From Anaerolineae bacterium (GTDB lineage: Bacteria; Chloroflexota; Anaerolineae; Anaerolineales; UBA4823): 64,000 nt of DNA. The notes under the pieces were generated by a model. The model worked only from the letters and a program-made list of their open reading frames with translations, was not told the DNA's origin and ran no database searches. The stretch covers positions 124,393 through 188,392 of the forward strand of contig JBBIVW010000003.1 of the NCBI GenBank assembly GCA_037439525.1, read 5' to 3'. The translations under genes and the position numbers were made by a program. Shown piece by piece: positions 11,662 through 56,880 of this stretch. Numbering within the stretch: the first letter of the stretch is position 1; every line of letters starts with the position of its first letter.

Positions 11662-12651
11662 TCATGAAGTCTTATTTTCGTTAGATAAAAAATCTTCAAT
11701 GTCACCCCAGGCTGCGCAAAGCGCGGCAACAATTGCAGGATCGTACTTCGTGCCGCTACATGCCTCTATTTCCTTTAGCGCTTGTTGGGGCGATACTGCT
11801 TTCTGATACACACGTTCAGCAGTCATGGCATCGAAGGAGTCGGCTACAGCGATAATGCGCGCACCTAATGGAATCTCTTCTCCCTTCAACCCATCAGGAT
11901 AACCCCGTCCATCCCAGCGCTCGTGGTGATTGCGGATGATGGGAATGGCGGGGGTCAGGTAAGAGATGTGCTCAATGAGTTGTGAGCCATAGATCGTGTG
12001 TTTCTTCATTTCGGTCCATTCTTCTGCGTTCAGTGGACCCGTCTTGGATAGCACGGTTTCGCGAATGTAAATTTTCCCGATGTCGTGTAAGATCGCCCCG
12101 AAACGCAAGGGCTTCATGCTCGATTCCGGGAGGCCTAAACGGCGGGCAATAATCAGGGCGATGTTCATCACCCTCTCGACATGACCGCGTGTATAGCGAT
12201 CGCGCAACTCGATGGCGTTGGCCAGCATGATCAGGCTGGTTTCATATGCCTGCTCTAACTGCGCCAGTAAAAGCTGATGTGTCCTTTCCAGGCGCGAGCG
12301 GATTGTGGTCAACAATTCCTGCCGATCAACTGGTTTCACCAGATAATCTTCCACTCCAAGCTTCTTCCCCGCAAACACATCGTCGCGTTCGCCGCGCGCA
12401 GTTAAGAAAATAAAAGGAATGGTCACCCACTCGGGTCGGGTGCGCACATGCCGATAGAACTCAAAACCGTCCATCTCAGGCATGGATATGTCTGACAAGA
12501 TCAAATCCGGGCATATGGAATCCATCTTGCTAAGCGCCTCTCGGCCATGTACCGCAGAAAGCGCGCGAAATCCCTCGGTTTCCAATAGGATTTTTAGACC
12601 CTCGCGCAGTAAATCGTTGTCTTCAACCACTAAAATTACTTCGTTTGGCAT
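11662..12651 (-). CDS. response regulator with HD-GYP output domain (predicted c-di-GMP phosphodiesterase)
   Basis: REC domain (VVEDND...LILSDISMPEMDG...LVKP) followed by an HD-GYP domain (ILHDIGK...HHERWDGRGYPDG). Confidence 0.9.
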   Translation of the reverse strand: MPNEVILVVEDNDLLREGLKILLETEGFRALSAVHGREALSKMDSICPDLILSDISMPEMDGFEFYRHVRTRPEWVTIPFIFLTARGERDDVFAGKKLGVEDYLVKPVDRQELLTTIRSRLERTHQLLLAQLEQAYETSLIMLANAIELRDRYTRGHVERVMNIALIIARRLGLPESSMKPLRFGAILHDIGKIYIRETVLSKTGPLNAEEWTEMKKHTIYGSQLIEHISYLTPAIPIIRNHHERWDGRGYPDGLKGEEIPLGARIIAVADSFDAMTAERVYQKAVSPQQALKEIEACSGTKYDPAIVAALCAAWGDIEDFLSNENKTS

Positions 12652-12660
12652 CGATGCTCC

Positions 12661-15543
12661 TTAAATCGGCAACCAGATTTGGAAAACAGAACCTTTGCCA
12701 ATTTCACTCTGCACATCGATCTTTCCCCGGTGCAGGTCAACAATTTCACGCACAATCGCCAGCCCCAAGCCAGTGCCATGAATGCTCGATTGGCGAACGT
12801 TTTTGCCACGGTAAAACCGGTCAAAGATATGTGGAAGGTCTTCTTCAGGAATGCCCATGCCCGTATCTCTGATCGATAAACAGGCCATCTTATCTGCACT
12901 TCCGGTTTCAAGCTGCACCTTTCCTTCGGGTGAATAGCGGATGGCATTCGTGATCAAATTGGCAAGCATGCGCGAGAGCTGGTTGTACTCACCCTGGATT
13001 TCAAGCGGTGTGGCTCCAGGTGTAAAGGTGACCTCTACACCGGCAGCTTCAGCCATGGGTGCATGGGCGGTGATCACATCTAAGACCAGCTTGTTCAAAT
13101 CCACCGGGGCAAACTCCAGTTGAGAAACGCGTGCCTTAGTAATGCGAGATAGATCGAGGATATCTTCAACCAGTTTGGTCAATTGAAAGCTTTGCTCGCG
13201 GATCACCGCCAGATATTGGGCATGTTTTTCGGGCGGGGAGCTTTCAAGCAAGTCCAGGTAGAGGTTGATGTTCGTGGTCGGCGTGCGTAGCTCGTGAGAG
13301 ACATCGGCAACAAAGATGTCCTTCATGCGGTCCAGTTCTTTTTGATGGGTTATATCGCGTTGGCTACCCACATAGCTGACGATATGTCCGCTCTGATCTC
13401 GCACAGGCGCGATGGTCAGTAGAATGTCATACAAGCGTCCATTCTTACGACGACTAAGCAACTCGCCACTCCAGACCTCCCCCTGCTTTAAACAGGCTTT
13501 TACTTCCTCGACTTTCTGGGCTTCGTTATATTCATTTAGAATACTGAAGAAGTCTTGACCCACAAGGTCATTAAAGGTAAACCCCGATTGTCTTTCAAAG
13601 GCGCTGTTGATGATCTCGATTTGACCATTCAAATCGGTCACCACCACTCCCTCTCCAACACTGGCAAGTATGGCTTCGACGCGCTCTTTGGCGTTGAACA
13701 ATTCAGCAGTACGCAATTTTACGCGATGTTCAAGCTCAGCAGCATATTGACGCAAACGCGTCACCAGATGCAAATTCTCTAAAATCGGGGCAATTTGCCG
13801 CGCCACAACGCGCATGATGTCGATATCCTCCGAGCTGAAAATATCCCCCCCCAATTTGGGTCCCAAAGCCAGGAGACCCTGGATCTTGGCATGAGCAATC
13901 ACAGGCACCCATAAATGAATCTGTTCACTTTTCAGCAGTTGGAGCTCTTCTGCAGATAGAGCTACTTCCTCCAGAGCTTTGCGCAAATTGTTTTTTTCAA
14001 CCACGCCAAGATTCAATAAAAACTCCAGGCTGCTTCGAGGCAAGTGTGGATAATGGCGTGGCGGTTGCTCATCCAGATTGTAACGCGAGGCCACCTCGAC
14101 GATCGAAAACTCTCCATCTGCGTCTCGAAAGAAGACGCATGCTTCTTCCAGGCGCAGGATGTTCACCAAGCGTTGACCCACGATTTGGGCTAACTCGTGG
14201 TAATCGTTGACCAGCTCAAGCCCATGGGTGATATTCATCACGCCTAAACGGTAATCGTACCAGCCACCATAGAACATGGTGTCTACAAACTTCTGAACAC
14301 GACTGTGCAAAGGAATGAAGACCGTCGCCAGGAATAATACCAAGAGCGTGTCCAGGATGCGATTTTCCCCAATTTCTTCAGGCAAGAATCGATGTAATAA
14401 GAAGAAGAGGATGAGATATGCCGCCCCCATGATTGAATACACAAGGATATAAGTTGCGCCTCGGTTGACATGGCGTTCAATTTCGATTAGATGCAGACGA
14501 AAAATCGCATAACCGTAGGAAATGGGGATAAAACTCAGCAGCGCAAAAGCGAAACGATACGGGAGAATGGTATTTTGAAAAAGCGCATCTGGCAAAATCG
14601 TCAGTGTGACAATGAGTAAAACCGTCAGCCCGCCTCCTAGAGCAACCAGGCGAATGCGGCTTCGCACCCCTGGAGACTTCGGTCGCATATACGCATATAC
14701 GAGCAACACGCCGACAACAAGCAGGTTGATTGCCAGGTAAAATCTGCCGATAGTTACCAGTTGAGGAAACCAGGGCATAACACGGAGATTCACTCCAGAA
14801 AAGATCGAAATTAGGTGCGGGGCGGCGCCGATGAGTGCCAGCGCGTAGAAGAAGGCGACGATCCAATTCTGTTTTTTACTTGCAGTTTTTTGGGGGAAAT
14901 GAAAATGGAGATGAATGGACAGTGGGCCAATGAACCACACCAGGGCGTTAAACAAACTGGACGCCCAACGAGGCCCCAGGTAAGATGCCACGCCTGCAGT
15001 GAGGCTTACGGCACTCACCTGACACCAATAAAAGAATATGCTCGCTGCGCTATCTGGAGGGCGAAATGTCTGCACGCCTAAGCCGATGCTCCAAAAGATC
15101 AGGGCCACCAAAATCGGGATGAGGCGAAAGAAGATCTCCACCGCATCTGGTTGTACCAGACGAATGGAGATGTGCATTTCCCTCCCGCCACGGTCAATGA
15201 CAAAACCAACCAGGTCGCCAGGATGTTTATCGTAATAGGTCGTGATGCGCGTCCCCCAAGGCTGTCCATCGATTTCTTTGATCACATCCCCTTTGAAGAG
15301 CAAGTTGTCCGCTGGGCCACCGGATTCTATCGCTCCAATGGACCCGTCTGGATGAAGGGTCTCGATGCCATCATGGGGGTAGGCAATCACCTGCACAATC
15401 GTCCATAAGATACCCAAAAGAACAACGACGGAGATGGCAAACGGCAAGCTCAACCACCACTGGCGACGAACGGTTTGGAAGATTGGTCGCTTGATCGTTA
15501 GCATATTTCGTATTTTAACATAGGCGCTTGTGATTGCCTCCAT
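12661..15543 (-). CDS. polytopic sensor histidine kinase (TM, PDZ-like loop, ~9-10 TM, GAF, PAS, HisKA, HATPase_c)
   Basis: 960 aa. An N-terminal TM is followed by a GDVIKEIDGQPWG PDZ-like segment and a long hydrophobic multi-pass region. The H-box is VSHELRTPT and the G-boxes are DTGMGI / GTGLGLAIV. Confidence 0.9.
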   Translation of the reverse strand: MEAITSAYVKIRNMLTIKRPIFQTVRRQWWLSLPFAISVVVLLGILWTIVQVIAYPHDGIETLHPDGSIGAIESGGPADNLLFKGDVIKEIDGQPWGTRITTYYDKHPGDLVGFVIDRGGREMHISIRLVQPDAVEIFFRLIPILVALIFWSIGLGVQTFRPPDSAASIFFYWCQVSAVSLTAGVASYLGPRWASSLFNALVWFIGPLSIHLHFHFPQKTASKKQNWIVAFFYALALIGAAPHLISIFSGVNLRVMPWFPQLVTIGRFYLAINLLVVGVLLVYAYMRPKSPGVRSRIRLVALGGGLTVLLIVTLTILPDALFQNTILPYRFAFALLSFIPISYGYAIFRLHLIEIERHVNRGATYILVYSIMGAAYLILFFLLHRFLPEEIGENRILDTLLVLFLATVFIPLHSRVQKFVDTMFYGGWYDYRLGVMNITHGLELVNDYHELAQIVGQRLVNILRLEEACVFFRDADGEFSIVEVASRYNLDEQPPRHYPHLPRSSLEFLLNLGVVEKNNLRKALEEVALSAEELQLLKSEQIHLWVPVIAHAKIQGLLALGPKLGGDIFSSEDIDIMRVVARQIAPILENLHLVTRLRQYAAELEHRVKLRTAELFNAKERVEAILASVGEGVVVTDLNGQIEIINSAFERQSGFTFNDLVGQDFFSILNEYNEAQKVEEVKACLKQGEVWSGELLSRRKNGRLYDILLTIAPVRDQSGHIVSYVGSQRDITHQKELDRMKDIFVADVSHELRTPTTNINLYLDLLESSPPEKHAQYLAVIREQSFQLTKLVEDILDLSRITKARVSQLEFAPVDLNKLVLDVITAHAPMAEAAGVEVTFTPGATPLEIQGEYNQLSRMLANLITNAIRYSPEGKVQLETGSADKMACLSIRDTGMGIPEEDLPHIFDRFYRGKNVRQSSIHGTGLGLAIVREIVDLHRGKIDVQSEIGKGSVFQIWLPI

Positions 15544-15570: not shown

Positions 15571-16632
15571 TTACGCGCTTAGAATGTCTAGAGTTTGAAC
15601 GAGGCTGTGTAAAACCTGTGCGGGGGCCGCGTTCGGGTGGGCTTCCGCCAGGCATTGGTTCGCCTGTTGACGATATTTTTCGAGTTGGAGAAGCAGAAAC
15701 ACACTCGCTCCACTGGTTTCGACCAACTCGAAAACGCGCTGCAAAGCGCGTCGATCGCGCGCGGCGCGCTCTATTTCTTGACGCAAATCTGCGCATTGGG
15801 GCTCTGGAAGAACCGCCAGCGCGTATCTCACCGGTAAAGATCGTGAAAGCCCGCGATAATAAGCCAGGCTTCGCTCTTCGGTAAGGGGCTTGAAATCTTC
15901 GAGGTCATCGAGCAACTGTACGGCAATACCGATATTTTCACCAAATTGCTGATAAGCTGCCAACTTTGACGGCTCCGACGTGGCAAGGGATGCGCCCAAA
16001 CGACACGCCAGGGCGAAAAATGCGCCGGATTTCTCCCGCGCACGTGTCCAATAGCTATCTAACGAAGGATCATGCTGCAACAGATCGCGGTGCTGACCTG
16101 CGCACATGACTAAAAAGCGTTTATAAAATTCGCTTAGCAGAGTTGGATCCAAGGATTGGGTGAGAGGCGATCGACTTTGGGAAAGAATGACTGAGGCGCT
16201 GAAATAAAACCCAGAGGCGATATTGAGCGCTGCTCCGCTTCCTATAGAAGACCAATGTGGATCCGGCTCGTCCTGATCTTCTATGGTGTCCATGATATGC
16301 GCGGCGACATAGTACAACAGCCACGCCGCAGCGAGGTCATCTGCCCAATGCATTTCCCCTCCGGCAGCCTGGCAACATAACCCGGGCAAGAACGCCCAAC
16401 GCAGCGGGGAACGCCGATCGACCTCAGTGTCTTCGTTAAAATGCGGCAGAGTCAAACGCATGGCATGGACAAACTCATGCCACGCGCCTGACTCCGCCCA
16501 AACTTGTTCGATTCTGTCCCAAATGGGCTTGAGCGTAAGACGGCTCAAGAAGCCCGCGGGGTCACATCCAGGATGTCGCTTTAATGGCGAGTTCAGAGAG
16601 GCGGACGCTCCCGCTCTGAACGGTTCCTCCAA
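15571..16632 (-). CDS. polyprenyl-synthetase-fold protein, ComQ-like putative peptide isoprenyl transferase
   Basis: Trans-prenyltransferase fold blocks are present: AAGG...AAAW..AAHIMDTIEDQDE (atypical first Asp-rich motif with no RRG after it), GQHRDL, KSGAFFALA, and IAVQLLDDLEDF (second DDxxD). The start is uncertain. The maximal ORF begins at TTG 16632 and overlaps the upstream small ORF by 71 nt. Alternative starts are TTG 16548 and ATG 16461. Confidence 0.75.
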   Translation of the reverse strand: MEEPFRAGASASLNSPLKRHPGCDPAGFLSRLTLKPIWDRIEQVWAESGAWHEFVHAMRLTLPHFNEDTEVDRRSPLRWAFLPGLCCQAAGGEMHWADDLAAAWLLYYVAAHIMDTIEDQDEPDPHWSSIGSGAALNIASGFYFSASVILSQSRSPLTQSLDPTLLSEFYKRFLVMCAGQHRDLLQHDPSLDSYWTRAREKSGAFFALACRLGASLATSEPSKLAAYQQFGENIGIAVQLLDDLEDFKPLTEERSLAYYRGLSRSLPVRYALAVLPEPQCADLRQEIERAARDRRALQRVFELVETSGASVFLLLQLEKYRQQANQCLAEAHPNAAPAQVLHSLVQTLDILSA

Positions 16633-16771
16633 GTCCAGCGCAAAGGAAATTCATTTCCTCGCGGCTCAGTTGGAATCCTTTGTCTTTCAATGCAGCTTCG
16701 GGATCGTTGCGCCATTTTTCCGCAAATTCAGCATTATTGGTGATGTGATAAACGACCTGTGCGAGTGACAT
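16562..16771 (-). CDS. 69-aa candidate pheromone/RiPP precursor (LigA/NHLP-like helical leader, GG motif, C-terminal ...ATSWM)
   Basis: AAGGAG lies 6 nt upstream of the ATG at 16771, and a strong promoter lies upstream. The leader xxDPEAALKDKGFQLSREE resembles LigA-subunit/NHLP-clan leaders. The stop lies within or adjacent to the start region of the ComQ-like gene. Confidence 0.6.
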   Translation of the reverse strand: MSLAQVVYHITNNAEFAEKWRNDPEAALKDKGFQLSREEMNFLCAGLGGTVQSGSVRLSELAIKATSWM

Positions 16772-16832
16772 ATGCATCTCCTTTGTCTTTACAATATTGA
16801 TAAGACGCCTGACATTTTTGCAAGGTACTGTA

Positions 16833-16861
16833 AGTTTAGCATAAAAAAGCCTCCTTGTCAA
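16833..16861 (-). promoter_or_regulatory. sigma70-type promoter for the small-peptide operon
   Basis: The reverse strand reads TTGACA (16861-16856), a 17-nt spacer, then TAAACT (16838-16833). It sits about 60 nt upstream of the precursor ATG. Confidence 0.5.
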
Positions 16862-17005
16862 GCGAAGCGCCATACATTGGGGCAAGAGTCTGATTATCCC
16901 CTACATATATGCCAAATCGGGTAGGAATACGATTTATTCGGAGTAAAATCATCAATTTTTGCCTATAACAGCAGAGCCGCAAGGGGAATTTCAGTGAAAA
17001 ATTTA

Positions 17006-17137: not shown

Positions 17138-18061
17138 ATGACAAACCATTCCGTGGCAACACTTGATCTGAATTTCATGAATATGCCGGGTGCAATCGCG
17201 GCATATGCGCTACCCCATGAAAAGGGGGTGCTGCTCATCGAAAGCGGGCCCGCTTCGACAATCAAAAACCTCGATTCCAATCTCGCCAAAATGGGATATT
17301 CGCTTGCTCAGGTGACTGATGTGTTTCTCACGCACATCCATCTCGACCATGCAGGCGCAGCCGGTTGGCTCGCCAGAACTGGCGCGCGCATTCATGTGCA
17401 CACAAATGGTGCGCCCCATTTACTCAATCCAGAACGTCTGCTCAACAGCGCGTGGAGAATCTATGGTGACGCATTGGAAGAACTATGGGGAGAATTCATC
17501 CCGGTGCCCGAGGACCAACTCCAATCCCACGAGGATAATGAGGTAATCGACATCCATGGGATAAAGATTCGCACGATAGACACCCCAGGCCATGCCTATC
17601 ACCACTTGAGCTACATTTGCTTGGATACCTGTTTCAGCGGCGATATCGGAGGGGTGCGCCTCGCTGGAGGCAAACACATCCGCCTGCCCATGCCTCCGCC
17701 GGAATTCAACCTCGAACTCTGGCGAGAAAGCCTCCACCGCCTGACCCTCGAACGATCGAAGGGAGTCTTTTCGAAAATCGCTCCAACGCATTTTGGCATT
17801 TACGCAGACGCCGATTGGCATCTTCAAGCAGCCCGCAAGGCGCTTGATGAGGTCGAAGAATGGTTGGAATCCGCAATGCAGGATAACCCTGACGTAGAAC
17901 AACTCAACACGCGGTTCCTCACCTGGACGGAACAACGCTCGATGCGAGAAGGCGCCTCGAGCGAAGATTTGCGCCTCTTTGAGACCGTCAATCCATCGAA
18001 AATGTCTTCGTATGGCCTCTATCGCTACTGGCATAAAGTGCGCATGAGCGAACACAATTGA
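17138..18061 (+). CDS. MBL-fold metallo-hydrolase
   Basis: THIHLDHAG (HxHxDH) motif, with a later TPGH and further His/Asp ligand positions. Confidence 0.85.
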   Translation: MTNHSVATLDLNFMNMPGAIAAYALPHEKGVLLIESGPASTIKNLDSNLAKMGYSLAQVTDVFLTHIHLDHAGAAGWLARTGARIHVHTNGAPHLLNPERLLNSAWRIYGDALEELWGEFIPVPEDQLQSHEDNEVIDIHGIKIRTIDTPGHAYHHLSYICLDTCFSGDIGGVRLAGGKHIRLPMPPPEFNLELWRESLHRLTLERSKGVFSKIAPTHFGIYADADWHLQAARKALDEVEEWLESAMQDNPDVEQLNTRFLTWTEQRSMREGASSEDLRLFETVNPSKMSSYGLYRYWHKVRMSEHN

Positions 18062-18399: not shown

Positions 18400-19344
18400 T
18401 TAAATCTGCTGCAATTGATAGGTGTATCCACCTTCCAGGGATAACTGTTCCGAAAGATGTCGCCTGAGGTATTGCCCACAATTGCTGCCAATCAAGTTCT
18501 CCTCGAGCTCTCCAATGCTCACTATGACCTCGTACCCCGCCTTACGTAAAGCCTCAAAAAGCGCATCGCCTTCATTTGACTCGTATGGATCGACATATGA
18601 CGTAAGGTTGTGTTCTCTGGCGCGATATGTTGGGTTTAGTGGGGTGATTTTGATGAGGAACTTTTCAGGCGAGAAATATGCGCGCAGTTTTTCAACCTCC
18701 ACAGGATACCCTTTCGCAAGGGCAAAGTTCAAGGTAACTTTGCGGTCTCCGGGCTGGTAAAAACGCTCTCCATAGGCAGCCATTTCGGTAAAACCCCACT
18801 TTTTTATCGGGATGATGCAGTCGCGCAATGCCTCATCGGTTGTATGGATGGAAAATTGAAATTGAAACTGACCGTTAGGATACATATCCCTTTTGATTTC
18901 TAGCAAGCGCTCAAAGAACCGCTCGCCCCGGGATGGCGCCACCGTCGATATGGAAGGCATTAACCCTGGGGCGTTAAGGCGCCGAGGCAACTCTTCCAAG
19001 ACATCCAAGACAGCGAGATTCAAAGCCGGTTCCCCCATACGAGCGAATTGAATCTTGAATTGTCTGCAAGGCACACTCGCCTGCGGGTATCTTCTGTGCA
19101 CCAGAAACTCAATCTGCTCCATGATCTCGTCCTTGCTGGCAACACCTTTATACCCCCCACCCGCATCGCACATCAGACAGCGCACCGGACAACCGAACAT
19201 GGTCGAAACGAGCAACACCCACTTGTCCTCACGGGGCAAGGGAGGTTGTATTGCTTCCACACATTCCAGATGCTTGCCGTCACCAAACTCTAGGATATAA
19301 ACCAGGGCAACTTCTTCTTTACCCGTTGAGGCAATCACGCGCAT
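18400..19344 (-). CDS. radical SAM enzyme with RlmN/Cfr-like core
   Basis: CPVRCLMC (CX3CX2C) cluster. Ordered blocks ARMGEPALN, SISTVAP, FSIHTTD, LNFALAKG, IKITPLNP and a C-terminal GSNCGQY resemble the RlmN/Cfr core, including the CGQ loop. Confidence 0.8.
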   Translation of the reverse strand: MRVIASTGKEEVALVYILEFGDGKHLECVEAIQPPLPREDKWVLLVSTMFGCPVRCLMCDAGGGYKGVASKDEIMEQIEFLVHRRYPQASVPCRQFKIQFARMGEPALNLAVLDVLEELPRRLNAPGLMPSISTVAPSRGERFFERLLEIKRDMYPNGQFQFQFSIHTTDEALRDCIIPIKKWGFTEMAAYGERFYQPGDRKVTLNFALAKGYPVEVEKLRAYFSPEKFLIKITPLNPTYRAREHNLTSYVDPYESNEGDALFEALRKAGYEVIVSIGELEENLIGSNCGQYLRRHLSEQLSLEGGYTYQLQQI

Positions 19345-20249
19345 AGCTCTGTCTCCTTCAAAGTCCGATAAATCTGCATAGCGGCTAAGAGACCATCCCC
19401 GATGGCAATGCCTGTTTGCCGGTATATGCCACGATGTACATCACCAATGAAATACAATCTGCCCGCCTTTAACAATTCGGCTTTCAACAATTGTATCTTA
19501 TCCGTAAGAAAATCGAGGCGGGGTTCTCGCCCTAAGGCACACAAGAGCACATCCGCATGAAACTCAAACTGCTCTCCTGCTCTTTGCCCGGATAAGAGCA
19601 ACCCCGCCGAGGAATCAAAAGCAACTTTCACGATGTTTGTGTTTGGCACATAGGCGATACTCTCTATTTGGCGGGCGCGTTGCCATAACAATGGCAGGCA
19701 CTTGAGGGTACTACTTCTATTTATGATCGTGATACGGTTACGTGGCGCAAGATTAAGGGCGTAATCAAAAGCCGCATCCCCTGCACCGAGGATCGCCACC
19801 TTTCTGCCGATCAAATCTCGCAACGGGTAAACTTCATAATAAACGTATCGCTCAGCACCCTCTTCCAGCATGTGCGCGGGCAATTGCCGTGGTTTTGTCC
19901 CACTGGCGATCACGACGATGCGGGACTGATATTCATTTTGCTGAGTTGTGAGCAGAAAACGCCCTTTTTCATAGTTAAGCGCCAGGACTTCTTCATAACA
20001 TACATCAACAGCCAGAAGTTCAAATTGCCGAACCATTTGATGCACCAATTGAGGTCCGGCTATTCCACCCGGAAAGCCGGGGTAGTTTTCGACCAAATTC
20101 GCATTCCAAAGCAGCCCGCCGAGACACGTGGCTTCAATCAACAAGGGGTCAAGGTCATAGCGCTTCATCTGGAGCGCCGCGGTCATCCCTGCCGGACCAC
20201 CGCCAATGACCACCACATCCCGATAAAGACCAGCGCTCATGACATCCAT
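19335..20249 (-). CDS. FAD/NAD(P)-binding oxidoreductase (thioredoxin-reductase-like fold, no CxxC)
   Basis: VVIGGGPAGMTAA and a second VAILGAGDAAFDYA dinucleotide motif. The CATCDG redox-active disulfide is absent (the sequence reads EATCLGG). Confidence 0.8.
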   Translation of the reverse strand: MDVMSAGLYRDVVVIGGGPAGMTAALQMKRYDLDPLLIEATCLGGLLWNANLVENYPGFPGGIAGPQLVHQMVRQFELLAVDVCYEEVLALNYEKGRFLLTTQQNEYQSRIVVIASGTKPRQLPAHMLEEGAERYVYYEVYPLRDLIGRKVAILGAGDAAFDYALNLAPRNRITIINRSSTLKCLPLLWQRARQIESIAYVPNTNIVKVAFDSSAGLLLSGQRAGEQFEFHADVLLCALGREPRLDFLTDKIQLLKAELLKAGRLYFIGDVHRGIYRQTGIAIGDGLLAAMQIYRTLKETELCA

Positions 20250-20899
20250 TCCAAAAGGTGAGTGCTCATTTGAGGGATCGCTAACCCATGAGACAAAGTG
20301 CGCAATGAAGATAGATGCAATTCAGCCGTGTAGGTTGCCGTGGCATCCACAACAAAGTAGACGGTGTAGCCGCGCACAAATGCAGCCCGCGCGGTGGTCT
20401 CGCAGCATAAATGGGTCATCACGCCGGTGATCACCAGGCTGTCAACGCGCGCGGATTTGAGCAGCGCATCCAATGAGGTGTCATAAAACGCATCGTATTG
20501 GGTTTTATCCAGCACCAGGTCTGTGGAGAGGTCAACTTCCAAATCTGCATGTAAAGATGCCAAGGGGTGGTTGGGGGTGATCAGTTCGCGCCACCAAACC
20601 GCCATCATCCCGGCGTTTTCGTAGGTGTTGACATGGCGGGTGTAAATGACTGGTCGATGCATGGCTTTGAACGCGCGCACCAACGCATTGATGTTCTGTA
20701 GGATTGCGGGGGCGCTGGGCACAAACGCATGTGAAGAGGGGGTAAGAAAATAGTCTTGCATATCCAGAACGAGCAAGCCGGCGTGCTGGGGGCTAAATGG
20801 AAATCGAGAAAATATTTTGCGAAAGCCAACCTGCTGGTAAAAAACCTCTGCCTGGCCTGCCAGCGTCTCAGGTGTGTAATAGGCTTCTTTCATTGACAT
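20237..20899 (-). CDS. isochorismatase-family cysteine hydrolase
   Basis: LLVLDMQDYF...LVITGVMTHLCCETTARAA, which gives the Asp, Lys and Cys triad context. Confidence 0.85.
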   Translation of the reverse strand: MSMKEAYYTPETLAGQAEVFYQQVGFRKIFSRFPFSPQHAGLLVLDMQDYFLTPSSHAFVPSAPAILQNINALVRAFKAMHRPVIYTRHVNTYENAGMMAVWWRELITPNHPLASLHADLEVDLSTDLVLDKTQYDAFYDTSLDALLKSARVDSLVITGVMTHLCCETTARAAFVRGYTVYFVVDATATYTAELHLSSLRTLSHGLAIPQMSTHLLEWMS

Positions 20900-46622: not shown

Positions 46623-46810
46623 GATGGCTCCTTTTTATGTTCTAAATTATACCCAAGCAGCCGGGTTTATACGACGCGCTTCAAAGTACCACAAGATGCT
46701 CAATTGGCTGCCTTTAATCCAATACGCCTCCAATTCGAGTATAATTTTTTATTCGCAGGAGAATTCAAGAACCAGGAAGGAGGTTTGCGGCAGAGAAGAA
46801 CTCGGGAAAG

Positions 46811-47010
46811 ATAGCGCATGGACTGGAGCAGGAACCTCCAGTTGACGAGGATGAGGGTTCCTGCCCGCAAGGGCAGGTTTACCGGACCATCGACAGGCTG
46901 CCCGCCTGGAGACCGGGAAAATCGAAGGATCAGCGGAAGCCCTCCGGGTGCGCACACCGCCCGACATCTTTCCCTCCACGAGAAATCCCGCCTAAACGCC
47001 ACAACGGCAA
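46811..47010 (+). ncRNA. glmS ribozyme/riboswitch-like leader (boundaries approximate)
   Basis: It lies upstream of glmS. There is an AT-A/GCGC cleavage-site-like start. An ACTGGAG/CTCCAGT hairpin has a GGAACC loop that can pair with a downstream GGTTCC (pseudoknot). The conserved-looking strings TGACGAGGATGAGG and ATCGAAGGATCAGCGGAAGCCCTCCGGGTG resemble the Bacillus core (GACGAGGAUG; AUCGAA..CGGCGGAUGCCUCCCGGCUG) as I recall it. Confidence 0.6.
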
Positions 47011-47126
47011 CGTTGCGGACAAAAAGCCGGGAAGTGTGCGGATAATCCGAACCGCCTCTGTGAAAGACAGGCTCTATGCCATCAAACGCGGAGACGGGAG
47101 GGAGACTCTTTTTGGAGGGATGCTCT

Positions 47127-55531: not shown

Positions 55532-56880
55532 TCCTCAAATTGTCGCTGATATCGCTCCCAAACTGCCGGGGCAACCTCTTGGCCTAAAGTGGCAATCTCG
55601 GCTTCATCCAGAGTGAGCAGGTGACGATCGCGCATGATCACGCGGCCATCCACCAGCATGGTAGTAACCATGCTCTCATGAAAACCAAAAATGATGTGCC
55701 AGGGGAGGTTTTCCGCGGTGAGAGGCGTGTAAGGATGGTAATCCACAAAGATGATATCCGCATAGGCTCCGGGAACGATGACGCCAATTGGCGCTTCGGC
55801 AAACAACTGCCCGGCGAGCCTTTGGTGGTTATACACACCCATGCGCGCTACATCCAAACCGGACATACGGCGCGGATCGCGGCGCCATAACTTGTGTACC
55901 AGATAGGCGGCTTTCCACTCTTCCCACATGGTGTGAGAAAAGCCATCCGTGCCCAGGCAGACATTGATCCCCGCGCGCAGAAAGCCTTCCACATCCGCCA
56001 CACCGACGCCGTTGTTCATGTTCGAGCGTGGCTGATGAGTCACCCAAGTGTTGGTTTCTGCAAGCAGTTGCACTTCGCGGGCATCTACATGAACCGCATG
56101 CACCACGATGGAGCGAGGCCCCAAAATGCCATGCTGATAGAGTCGGTCGACAACGCGCGTGCCGTACCGCGCCAGCGAATCGTATTCATCCGCTTCGTGC
56201 TCCGCAACGTGGATATGAAAACCAAGCTCTTGAGGCGCTGCCTGGCGGCAGGCGCGCAACGTCTCTTCCGACAATGTGAGGCTGGCATGCAATCCGAAGG
56301 TGGCCGACAGCCTCCCTGCGGCATTATCTCCTCTCTGGAGGCGGGTGAAAAAGCGCAGGTTTTCCTCGATGCCGGCGCGGGCTTTTGCCTCACCATCGCG
56401 ATCCGTAACCTCGTAGCACAACGCGGCACGCAAGCCGGCACGTTCCACCGCCTCCGCAATGATGTCCAATGAGCCCGAAATGGCGTTAGGCGAGGCATGG
56501 TGATCGATAAGGGTTGTCGTGCCATGCTTGATGGCATCCACCAACATGACCAATGCAGAAAGCCGTATGGCTTCTTCATCCAAAGAGCGATCCAAAGGCC
56601 ACCAAAGCTTTTGCAGGATTTCAGGAAAATCCTTGGGCGGGGCGCCCGGAATGGCCATGCCGCGCGCAAACGCGCCATAGAAATGCGTGTGCGCACAAAT
56701 GTTTCCGGGCATTACCAGTTGATGGCGCGCGTCCAATTTTTCTTCGTTAGGATAGGCTTTCTCAAGTTCCTCCTGGGGTCCAAGTGCGGTAATGTGACTT
56801 CCACGGATCAGCAGAGCAAATCCCTCTAAGATGCGGTTCGGCTGTTCCCAGGTGATGATCGTGCCGTTGGTGATCAACAT
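55528..56880 (-). CDS. SsnA-like amidohydrolase (chlorohydrolase/aminohydrolase family)
   Basis: VMPGNICAHTHFYGAFARG (HxH metal site) and an overall architecture like E. coli SsnA as I recall it. It overlaps fno by 4 nt. Confidence 0.75.
   Translation of the reverse strand: MLITNGTIITWEQPNRILEGFALLIRGSHITALGPQEELEKAYPNEEKLDARHQLVMPGNICAHTHFYGAFARGMAIPGAPPKDFPEILQKLWWPLDRSLDEEAIRLSALVMLVDAIKHGTTTLIDHHASPNAISGSLDIIAEAVERAGLRAALCYEVTDRDGEAKARAGIEENLRFFTRLQRGDNAAGRLSATFGLHASLTLSEETLRACRQAAPQELGFHIHVAEHEADEYDSLARYGTRVVDRLYQHGILGPRSIVVHAVHVDAREVQLLAETNTWVTHQPRSNMNNGVGVADVEGFLRAGINVCLGTDGFSHTMWEEWKAAYLVHKLWRRDPRRMSGLDVARMGVYNHQRLAGQLFAEAPIGVIVPGAYADIIFVDYHPYTPLTAENLPWHIIFGFHESMVTTMLVDGRVIMRDRHLLTLDEAEIATLGQEVAPAVWERYQRQFEE

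Follow-up and report, generated by a model that had tools for sequence, protein, structure and literature searches.

A probable small Trp-containing precursor at the head of a putative ComX-type signaling operon in an Anaerolineae bacterium

What does a 69-amino-acid (aa) open reading frame (ORF) with a leader-like N terminus and a Trp next to its last residue encode? The ORF, here called X, was found on the minus strand of a 64,000-nucleotide (nt) stretch from an Anaerolineae bacterium (GenBank assembly GCA_037439525.1, contig JBBIVW010000003.1, positions 124,393 to 188,392). This whole stretch is referred to as the window, and its own numbering is used throughout. A first-pass annotation had offered three readings of X: a ComX-like prenylated pheromone, a ribosomally synthesized and posttranslationally modified peptide (RiPP) of the nitrile-hydratase-leader (NHLP) type that is cleaved at a Gly-Gly motif, and a small nonprocessed helical protein. 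The first is now favored, because a ComQ/PalQ/StheQ-like gene (Q) lies next to X, a ComP-like kinase gene (P) follows, and the Trp is conserved in the peptide tail. With the response regulator gene R, these genes form the operon X-Q-P-R. Sequence comparison and analogy with known systems indicate that X is probably the precursor of a ComX-type Trp-prenylated signaling peptide (probability, about 0.68).

All four genes are on the minus strand, with X in first position (Table 1). The X stop codon is separated from Q by 14 nt (or the two genes overlap), Q from P by 27 nt, and P from R by 9 nt. A convergent aldo-keto reductase gene beyond R closes the unit. A terminator or attenuator was looked for in the X-Q junction, and none was found.

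Table 1. Positions of the X-Q-P-R genes, the regions of X, and the signals upstream of X in the window
Feature	Coordinates	Strand	Basis
X, 69-aa precursor peptide	16562..16771	minus	Translation, purifying selection versus L003, homologues
X leader, residues 1-47, helical, NHLP clan	16631..16771	minus	NF038399 match, family conservation
X variable linker, residues 48-55 (GGTVQSGS), with nonconserved Gly-Gly	16607..16630	minus	Entropy of 2.9 bits
X C-terminal region, residues 56-69, VRLSELAIKATSWM	16565..16606	minus	Trp kept in family
Shine-Dalgarno sequence AAGGAG of X	16778..16783	minus	Read from sequence
Promoter-like site: TTGACA, 17-nt spacer, TG-extended TAAACT	16833..16861	minus	Consensus scan, 10/12 matches
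Q, IPPS-fold (polyprenyl_synt) enzyme, proposed peptide Trp prenyltransferase	15571..16548	minus	PF00348, E value of 2.7e-16
P, 960-aa sensor histidine kinase	12661..15543	minus	Pfam, AF2, Foldseek
R, response regulator, receiver plus HD-GYP	11662..12651	minus	PF00072, E value of 2.7e-27; PF13487, E value of 2e-41

Searches with Q alone yielded 2 genome and 61 metagenome loci. Q homologues always adjoined an X-type peptide. In about 40 of these loci, a leader-only profile search found an X-like small ORF directly 5' of Q on the same strand, and more divergent X candidates were picked out by eye in further loci. A kinase with a homologous N-terminal sensor was located by tblastn directly 3' of Q in most loci of sufficient length. 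The X-Q-P arrangement recurred in dozens of Chloroflexota (Anaerolineales) metagenome loci, and the named homologues came from Anaerolineales metagenome-assembled genomes. The complete X-Q-P-R set with an HD-GYP regulator was also present in L003 to L005, L012, L069, and L071. In L002, a GerE-type regulator takes the place of the HD-GYP protein, which gives a near-canonical ComQXPA set.

Two of the compared cassettes appeared to be damaged. In L006 (8207-9864), Q seems to have suffered a truncation or a frameshift (a 282-aa product whose C terminus is junk, followed by a 147-aa ORF), and in L071 (6001-8857), the kinase is split into ORFs of 95 aa and 850 aa; these may be pseudogenes or assembly errors. 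In addition, a stand-alone receiver-domain protein is encoded immediately 5' of X in L001 (5195-5572), L002 (5321-5701), and L030 (1181-1363), which are loci of the HisKA_3 type described below; the window has no counterpart.

In the proposed mechanism, the helical NHLP-clan leader (approximately residues 1 to 47) would dock X onto Q. Q, a Mg2+-dependent enzyme with a trans-isoprenyl-diphosphate-synthase (trans-IPPS) fold, would then prenylate the indole of Trp68 at C3, the attached group probably being geranyl or farnesyl, and a pyrroloindoline ring would probably be closed on this residue, as in ComX, PalX, and StheX. After removal of the leader by a protease encoded outside the cluster, a short lipopeptide would be released, probably comprising the last 8 to 11 or so residues (about ELAIKATSWM or shorter) instead of the 20-mer defined by the Gly-Gly motif. 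The adjacent kinase P would sense this peptide via its ComP-like sensor and phosphorylate R, with a change in cyclic di-GMP (c-di-GMP) hydrolysis, not ComA-type transcription, as the outcome. We infer all of these steps, from prenylation through processing and export to sensing, by homology and analogy.

The sensor kinase P and the HD-GYP regulator R

The domain order of P is a first transmembrane (TM) helix, a PDZ domain predicted to be extracytoplasmic, nine more TM helices, GAF, PAS, HisKA (PF00512), and HATPase. In the AlphaFold2 (AF2) model of residues 1 to 440 (predicted local distance difference test [pLDDT] score, 83), TM1 spans residues 33 to 53 and is followed by a five-strand beta domain (residues 57 to 130) and nine further long helices. 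The best Foldseek matches were the peptide-binding PDZ domains of DegS, DegQ, HtrA, and AlgW. Pfam PDZ matches above the cutoff were obtained for the homologous sensors of L001 and L002, and some P homologues are Anaerolineales proteins named "PDZ domain-containing protein." Basic residues precede TM1, so by the positive-inside rule the N terminus is expected inside and the beta domain outside the membrane.

The ComP kinase of Bacillus has ten TM helices and an 85-residue first loop with a PDZ fold and the same structural neighbors, and this loop has been proposed to bind ComX (PMC9620489). In its model, the P sensor likewise has about 10 TM helices and, as its large first extracellular loop, a domain with the PDZ fold; P is proposed to be the receptor of the modified X peptide. 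PDZ domains bind C termini. Such a domain would suit a ligand that is conserved in having a modified Trp at its C terminus.

The translation of R contains both signature motifs of an HD-GYP regulator, HDIGK and HHERWDGRGYPDGL. Its match to NF053512 had an E value of 5.5e-63, with a score below the 400-bit cutoff of that family. From its sequence, the output of R is predicted to be c-di-GMP phosphodiesterase activity.

Across the loci, the transmitter of the sensor-homologous kinases was not constant: some, like that of the window, pair HisKA with PAS, and others have HisKA_3 (L001, L002, L021, L035, L040, L051, and L064). This bears on the question of whether the product of X is a signal at all. 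X may be prenylated by Q to give an antimicrobial, surfactant, or membrane-anchored lipopeptide, in which case the kinase and regulator would only regulate its production, provide protection, or sense something else. Roles other than signaling occur among prenylated RiPPs, for example, in the cyanobactins (PMC10853753), the role of the PalX and StheX products is given as unknown by their authors, and no exporter was identified in the window. However, it is the sensor domain of the kinase, not the transmitter, that stays with X and Q across divergent loci. The modeled P sensor is also laid out like that of ComP, its PDZ fold of the peptide-binding kind facing the outside of the cell, and no immunity or transport genes were conserved beside the cassette among the compared loci. 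A lipopeptide with a nonsignaling function is thus considered unlikely, although it deserves to be kept in mind.

The X peptide, its leader, and its probable core

Translation of the minus strand gave the 69-aa product MSLAQVVYHITNNAEFAEKWRNDPEAALKDKGFQLSREEMNFLCAGLGGTVQSGSVRLSELAIKATSWM, the same string as in the first-pass annotation, and bore out its description of an AAGGAG sequence 6 nt upstream, GLGG at residues 46 to 49, and Trp at position -2. The C-terminal region consists of a semiconserved VRLSEL segment (residues 56 to 61) and a variable tail containing Trp68 (codon 16568-16570), the candidate prenylation site. The last 20 residues contain no Trp besides Trp68, and the leader contains one more, W20.

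The X family is small. Eight close homologues were present in a word-indexed database, and 71 small-protein clusters were retrieved at an E value of ≤1e-3 among 1.84 billion representatives. In an alignment of 43 close relatives, the mean column entropy was lowest in the leader (residues 1 to 47; 1.31 bits) and higher in the linker (residues 48 to 55; 2.9 bits), VRLSEL (2.3 bits), and the tail (residues 62 to 67; 2.8 bits). A conserved leader and a variable tail that keeps its Trp had been named in advance as the pattern to look for among homologues, and this pattern was observed.

The C-terminal Trp was aligned in 43/43 relatives, a set partly picked for having a C-terminal Trp. For a count free of this choice, 68 short representatives from the 71-cluster search were used. 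Trp was located ≤4 residues from the C terminus in 31 of them and among the last 5 to 20 residues in 27; the remaining 10 seemed truncated, frameshifted, or fused. Among background small ORFs from the same loci, 13% had Trp in the last five residues. Trp is the one conserved residue of the tail, and its natural position in the family ranges from -1 to -4 or is internal. With a Trp that is kept while the rest of the C-terminal region varies, and with a prenyltransferase candidate encoded beside it, the small X peptide has the arrangement of ComX-type precursors, a functional class that includes PalX and StheX.

The best profile match of the leader was NF038399, the "Os1348 family NHLP clan protein." Residues 3 to 43 matched with an E value of 1.6e-8 and a score of 34.5 bits against a curated cutoff of 40. 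Among Q-adjacent X relatives, the score was 39.1 bits in L015, and the peptides of L024 (45.0 bits) and L029 (56.0 bits) exceeded the cutoff. The match to TIGR03798 (Nif11) had an E value of 0.087, and the only Pfam match at an E value of ≤1 was a weak one to PF14407 (Frankia_peptide; E value, 0.0016). Homology of the leader to the NHLP clan is supported by these sequence matches at the level of the clan; the earlier assignment holds to that extent, and the window peptide itself stays below the cutoff. The LigA-like part of that assignment was dropped, with no Pfam LigA match at an E value of ≤1. By analogy with PalX/PalQ (PMC10853753) and the StheQ-StheX complex (10.64898/2026.08.29.745113), the leader is proposed to be a docking element for Q.

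The Gly-Gly motif had been taken as a leader cleavage site that would release a 20-residue core. It is present only in the window X, L003, and one or two other homologues; elsewhere, this position reads GLK, GLQ, GLN, etc., with GG replaced by KN, KE, QG, IN, RR, and others. In addition, the Trp-containing unit is repeated in tandem, in two or three copies, in four X relatives. P0016 (L069 6001-6285), which sits in an X-Q-P-R(HD-GYP) locus, has three ERTSWYQ copies after one leader, P0030 (L068 40-366) has three copies of SLADEKAAAWRG after one leader, and P0057 and P0070 each have two copies with a single leader. The repeat units measure about 11 to 19 aa. Thus, the short Trp unit is likely to be the core, and the mature peptide would comprise about 8 to 11 residues and not the Gly-Gly-defined 20-mer.

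These results leave little room for X as a classical NHLP-type RiPP, which would be cut after Gly-Gly (residues 48 and 49) by a C39-ABC exporter to give a 20-residue core, with Q being incidental or minor and X perhaps modified by a different enzyme, such as the radical SAM protein encoded nearby. Such a peptide would be expected to have an NHLP-clan leader and a GLGG motif, as the window X does; a radical SAM gene is located 1.6 kb 5' of X on the same strand, and the distant locus L002 has a C39-like peptidase gene 5 kb away. However, most of the family lacks the Gly-Gly motif, the multicore repeat units are shorter than the core that it would define, and the invariant neighbor of X is Q and not a radical SAM enzyme. 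A C39 peptidase gave no significant tblastn match in the 64-kb window, and no LSGGQ signature of an ABC transporter was present. A divergent gene lies between X and the operon of radical SAM, FAD-oxidoreductase, and isochorismatase genes (18400-20899); this operon was rejected as a part of the cluster because L003, in other respects syntenic, lacks it. A classical RiPP is accordingly held to be improbable.

A marginal C39 tblastn match at 56310-56471 was discarded; it falls within an amidohydrolase-like ORF. The peptidase of L002 (12264-12725, minus strand) is a stand-alone C39-like protein (PF13529; E value, 5.7e-13) encoded about 5 kb from the X-Q-P-GerE-regulator cassette and is a candidate leader protease for that locus only.

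The prenyltransferase candidate Q and the X gene

The AF2 model of Q (pLDDT score, 89) has a trans-IPPS fold, with TM scores of 0.75 to 0.78 to IPPS structures, including the indole prenyltransferase Ord1. In a search with the profile of Q homologues, Ord1 (9v4g; 9v4g-j are Ord1) was the second-ranked PDB match. Residues are given in 325-aa numbering, and invariance refers to 35 homologues. D87, D91, and D93 of the first Asp-rich motif, which in ComQ-family enzymes binds Mg2+ and the prenyl diphosphate, are invariant, and their D-x3-D-x-D spacing equals that of StheQ D85/D89/D91. K173 (StheQ K174), D214, and D215 are also invariant. So is Q211, which is located one turn before the second Asp motif and has counterparts in StheQ Q212, PalQ Q197, and Ord1 Q216. 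In the subgroup of the window Q, the second Asp of the first-motif DDxxD is replaced by Thr or Ser. The second Asp-rich motif of the window Q is an intact DDxxD, and a GQxxDL motif is also present.

In chain-elongating synthases, such as farnesyl and geranylgeranyl diphosphate synthases (FPPS and GGPPS), an RRG after the first Asp-rich motif and an upstream GKRxR-type motif bind isopentenyl diphosphate (IPP). RRG or RR after the first Asp-rich motif was absent in 34/35 Q homologues, and no basic motif was conserved ahead of the LPGLCCQAAGG helix. Therefore, from sequence, a chain-elongation role of the Q family is unlikely. A StheQ-like subgroup (QLDNDxHDL), which was found with the same Q profile and is about 26 to 30% identical to the window Q, has partner peptides ending in WWF, WWV, or YW. 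One homologue (42% identity) is annotated as "competence protein ComQ" by JGI. Taken together, sequence and model suggest a place for Q in a branch of the IPPS superfamily that is associated with peptides.

Public annotations name Q homologues "geranylgeranyl pyrophosphate synthase." If Q were such an ordinary synthase, X might be an unprocessed small helical protein that serves either Q or the kinase as a partner or a regulatory subunit; heteromeric prenyl diphosphate synthases offer a parallel for the pairing with Q. The complete IPPS fold, the intact second DDxxD, and GQxxDL are in line with this, and stable enzyme-peptide complexes are formed by both StheQ and PalQ. The family, however, lacks the IPP-binding RRG and upstream basic motif, and its characterized relatives are peptide prenyltransferases. 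Moreover, the X tail varies everywhere but at its Trp, and some relatives carry it in two or three copies, which is unexpected for a structural subunit. The chance that X is an unprocessed subunit appears slim.

Three starts are possible for Q: TTG 16548, which lies 14 nt past the X stop codon, TTG 16632, which overlaps X, and ATG 16461. Homologues retain the segment IWDRIEQVWAESGAWHEFVHAMR, which places the start 5' of the first ATG, 16461; TTG 16548 is the simplest choice. In L003, L007, L008, L009, L011, and L017, the Q N-terminal segment is in the X frame, with only the X stop codon between them and no obvious ATG nearby. This may reflect coupling by termination and reinitiation; given that several of these loci are related, the shared frame does not go beyond chance. 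Read-through from X into Q was rejected, since the two frames differ in the window and the common frame in relatives does not exceed chance.

X begins with an ATG at 16771-16769 and ends with a TGA at 16564-16562. The mechanical ORF list extends the longest frame to 107 aa, from an upstream TTG at 16885; ATG 16771 was chosen because all homologues begin with MSLAQ or MTLAQ. The AAGGAG sequence, separated from this ATG by a 6-nt spacer (ATGCAT), is unchanged across the window, L003, L069, and L071. The product is 90% identical to that of L003, the closest relative. The two genes differ at 39 nucleotides, 30 of which are at third codon positions, and the codon changes comprise 30 synonymous and 7 nonsynonymous ones. 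By this sequence comparison, X is a real gene under purifying selection. The suspicion of a random reading frame or of a remnant without translation, to which a 69-aa ORF scoring above the cutoff of no curated family might give rise, is effectively refuted by this excess of synonymous changes, the invariant Shine-Dalgarno sequence, the 71 homologous clusters, and the conserved position beside Q.

A promoter-like site is located about 60 nt 5' of the X start codon. It is a putative site defined by consensus match; both hexamers are kept in the syntenic L003 despite diverged flanks. Divergently oriented beside X is a gene for a metallo-β-lactamase (MBL)-fold hydrolase (17138-18061, plus strand) with weak similarity to B3 lactamases and acyl homoserine lactone (AHL) lactonases. 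It is also found near X in L003 (6724-7656) and L071 (1712-2647) and was not seen in the more distant L006 and L070; its position could reflect synteny only, or the product could be a processing or quenching enzyme. Farther from X, the block at 18400-20899 (minus strand) consists of three overlapping genes, whose products are a 314-aa radical SAM protein distantly resembling RlmN/Cfr, a 304-aa FAD oxidoreductase similar to thioredoxin reductase, and a 220-aa member of the isochorismatase family. Its absence from L003 reflects either an insertion in the window or a deletion in L003. At 46802-47042 (plus strand), the full-length glmS ribozyme/riboswitch model RF00234 was matched with 43.9 bits (gathering score, 37).

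Comparison with known systems and meaning of the operon

The closest published parallels are two prenylated-peptide systems. In Paenibacillus alvei, PalX is an NHLP-type precursor with a C-terminal Trp. PalQ, a member of the IPPS superfamily, attaches a prenyl group to C3 of the indole of this Trp, and a ring is closed; the NHLP domain promotes prenylation, and the gene for a kinase, PalP, lies alongside (Miyata et al. 2023, PMC10853753). The window thus shares with the Pal cluster the NHLP-type precursor, the conserved C-terminal Trp, the adjacent IPPS-superfamily prenyltransferase gene, and a histidine kinase. PalQ Q197/D200/D204 also matches Q211/D214/D218 of the window Q, i.e., Gln and Asp...Asp at the second motif, and the PalX core is short (8 aa). 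The differences are that PalQ needs Trp as the very last residue, whereas Trp68 of X is followed by Met, and that the gene order is P-X-Q in Pal and X-Q-P-R in the window. Pal is, moreover, a Firmicutes system for which no HD-GYP regulator has been described.

The second parallel is StheQ/StheX of Sphaerobacter thermophilus, a member of the Chloroflexi, in which StheX, a peptide of 69 aa, is farnesylated in vitro on its Trp at -2 (Matsui et al., August 2026 preprint, 10.64898/2026.08.29.745113). Phylum, peptide length, the adjoining IPPS-fold enzyme, and Trp at -2 are shared with the window, and the D-x3-D-x-D, Lys, and Gln positions of StheQ and Q correspond. In contrast, StheQ has a critical Asn215 where the window Q has Asp, stheX lies downstream of stheQ according to the preprint, whereas X is upstream of Q, and the preprint mentions neither a kinase nor an NHLP leader. 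The first-pass annotation had considered the fusion of an NHLP-like leader to a ComX-like tail unusual. This view is superseded, as the combination of an NHLP leader with a C-terminal Trp has already been published for PalX/PalQ in 2023 (PMC10853753) and StheX/StheQ in 2026 (10.64898/2026.08.29.745113).

Like ComQXPA of Bacillus subtilis and other Firmicutes, the window has a Trp-containing small precursor, an IPPS-family prenyltransferase candidate, a kinase with 10 TM helices and a PDZ loop, and a response regulator in one locus. Unlike ComX, X has an NHLP-clan leader. The order is X-Q instead of Q-X, and R is of the HD-GYP type, whereas ComA is of the NarL/GerE type. Some relatives lie closer to ComQXPA, since L001 and L002 have HisKA_3 kinases like ComP, and L002 also has the GerE-type regulator. 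RpfG is a receiver/HD-GYP c-di-GMP phosphodiesterase in diffusible signal factor (DSF) signaling. The RpfC/RpfG system of Xanthomonas resembles the proposed pathway in leading from a diffusible signal via a membrane kinase to such a phosphodiesterase. It differs in that a fatty acid takes the place of the peptide signal, RpfC is of the hybrid type and has a sensor unlike that of P, and the signal synthesis genes are nonhomologous. In classical NHLP/Nif11 systems, the leader ends in Gly-Gly or Gly-Ala and is paired with C39-ABC exporters and other maturases; the X family conserves neither feature.

Several points weigh against the assignment of X to the ComX type. The fold search scored Ord1 and GGPPS-type structures about alike for Q and was therefore not discriminating. 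The window Q reads QLLDDLED, with Asp at the position of StheQ N215 and ComQ N186; it thus has DDxxD where ComQ has the NDxxx of a pseudo-second Asp-rich motif (pseudo-SARM). Mutation of this Asn to Asp costs ComQ (N186) about 90% of its activity and StheQ (N215D) 98%. X itself scores below the NF038399 cutoff and has no Pfam ComX match at an E value of ≤1. The likeness of P to ComP was compared by architecture and modeled fold only, and the transmitter of P is GAF-PAS-HisKA, whereas that of ComP is HisKA_3. Finally, neither a leader protease nor an exporter was found in the cluster or the 64-kb window. The Asn/Asp objection is softened, without being removed, by PalQ (Q197/D200/D204) and Ord1 (Q216/D219), which naturally carry Asp at this position. 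In the metagenome set, Asp-type and Asn-type Q both adjoin X-type peptides.

Trp-prenylated peptide pheromones were long considered a Bacillus specialty. A KEGG-based survey noted ComP-ComA-like pairs in Chloroflexi, and among the papers searched, none links ComQ-type systems to HD-GYP regulators or places them in Anaerolineae. What is new relative to known systems, taken together, is the NHLP leader with Trp at -2, the intact DDxxD in Q, the ComP-like sensor on a HisKA kinase, and the HD-GYP output. The broader proposal is that uncultured members of the Anaerolineales, which are filamentous Chloroflexota, possess ComX-type quorum sensing, in which a Trp-prenylated peptide acts through a ComP-like PDZ/10-TM kinase directly on HD-GYP-dependent c-di-GMP turnover, with pherotype-like and multicore diversification. 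This proposal is tentative, and we would place it slightly short of even odds.

The variation between Asp and Asn at a key catalytic position, the differing placement of Trp, and the multicore precursors offer material for enzymology and for peptide lipidation tools. That the Anaerolineales precursor and prenyltransferase candidate travel with a ComP-like kinase would supply the missing genomic argument for signals over mere natural products. The c-di-GMP phosphodiesterase output would tie peptide quorum sensing to a biofilm/motility switch. If the proposal is true, prenyl-peptide signaling would be an ancient language, shared across phyla, whose outputs can be exchanged while the PDZ loop is kept as the reader of C-terminal peptides.

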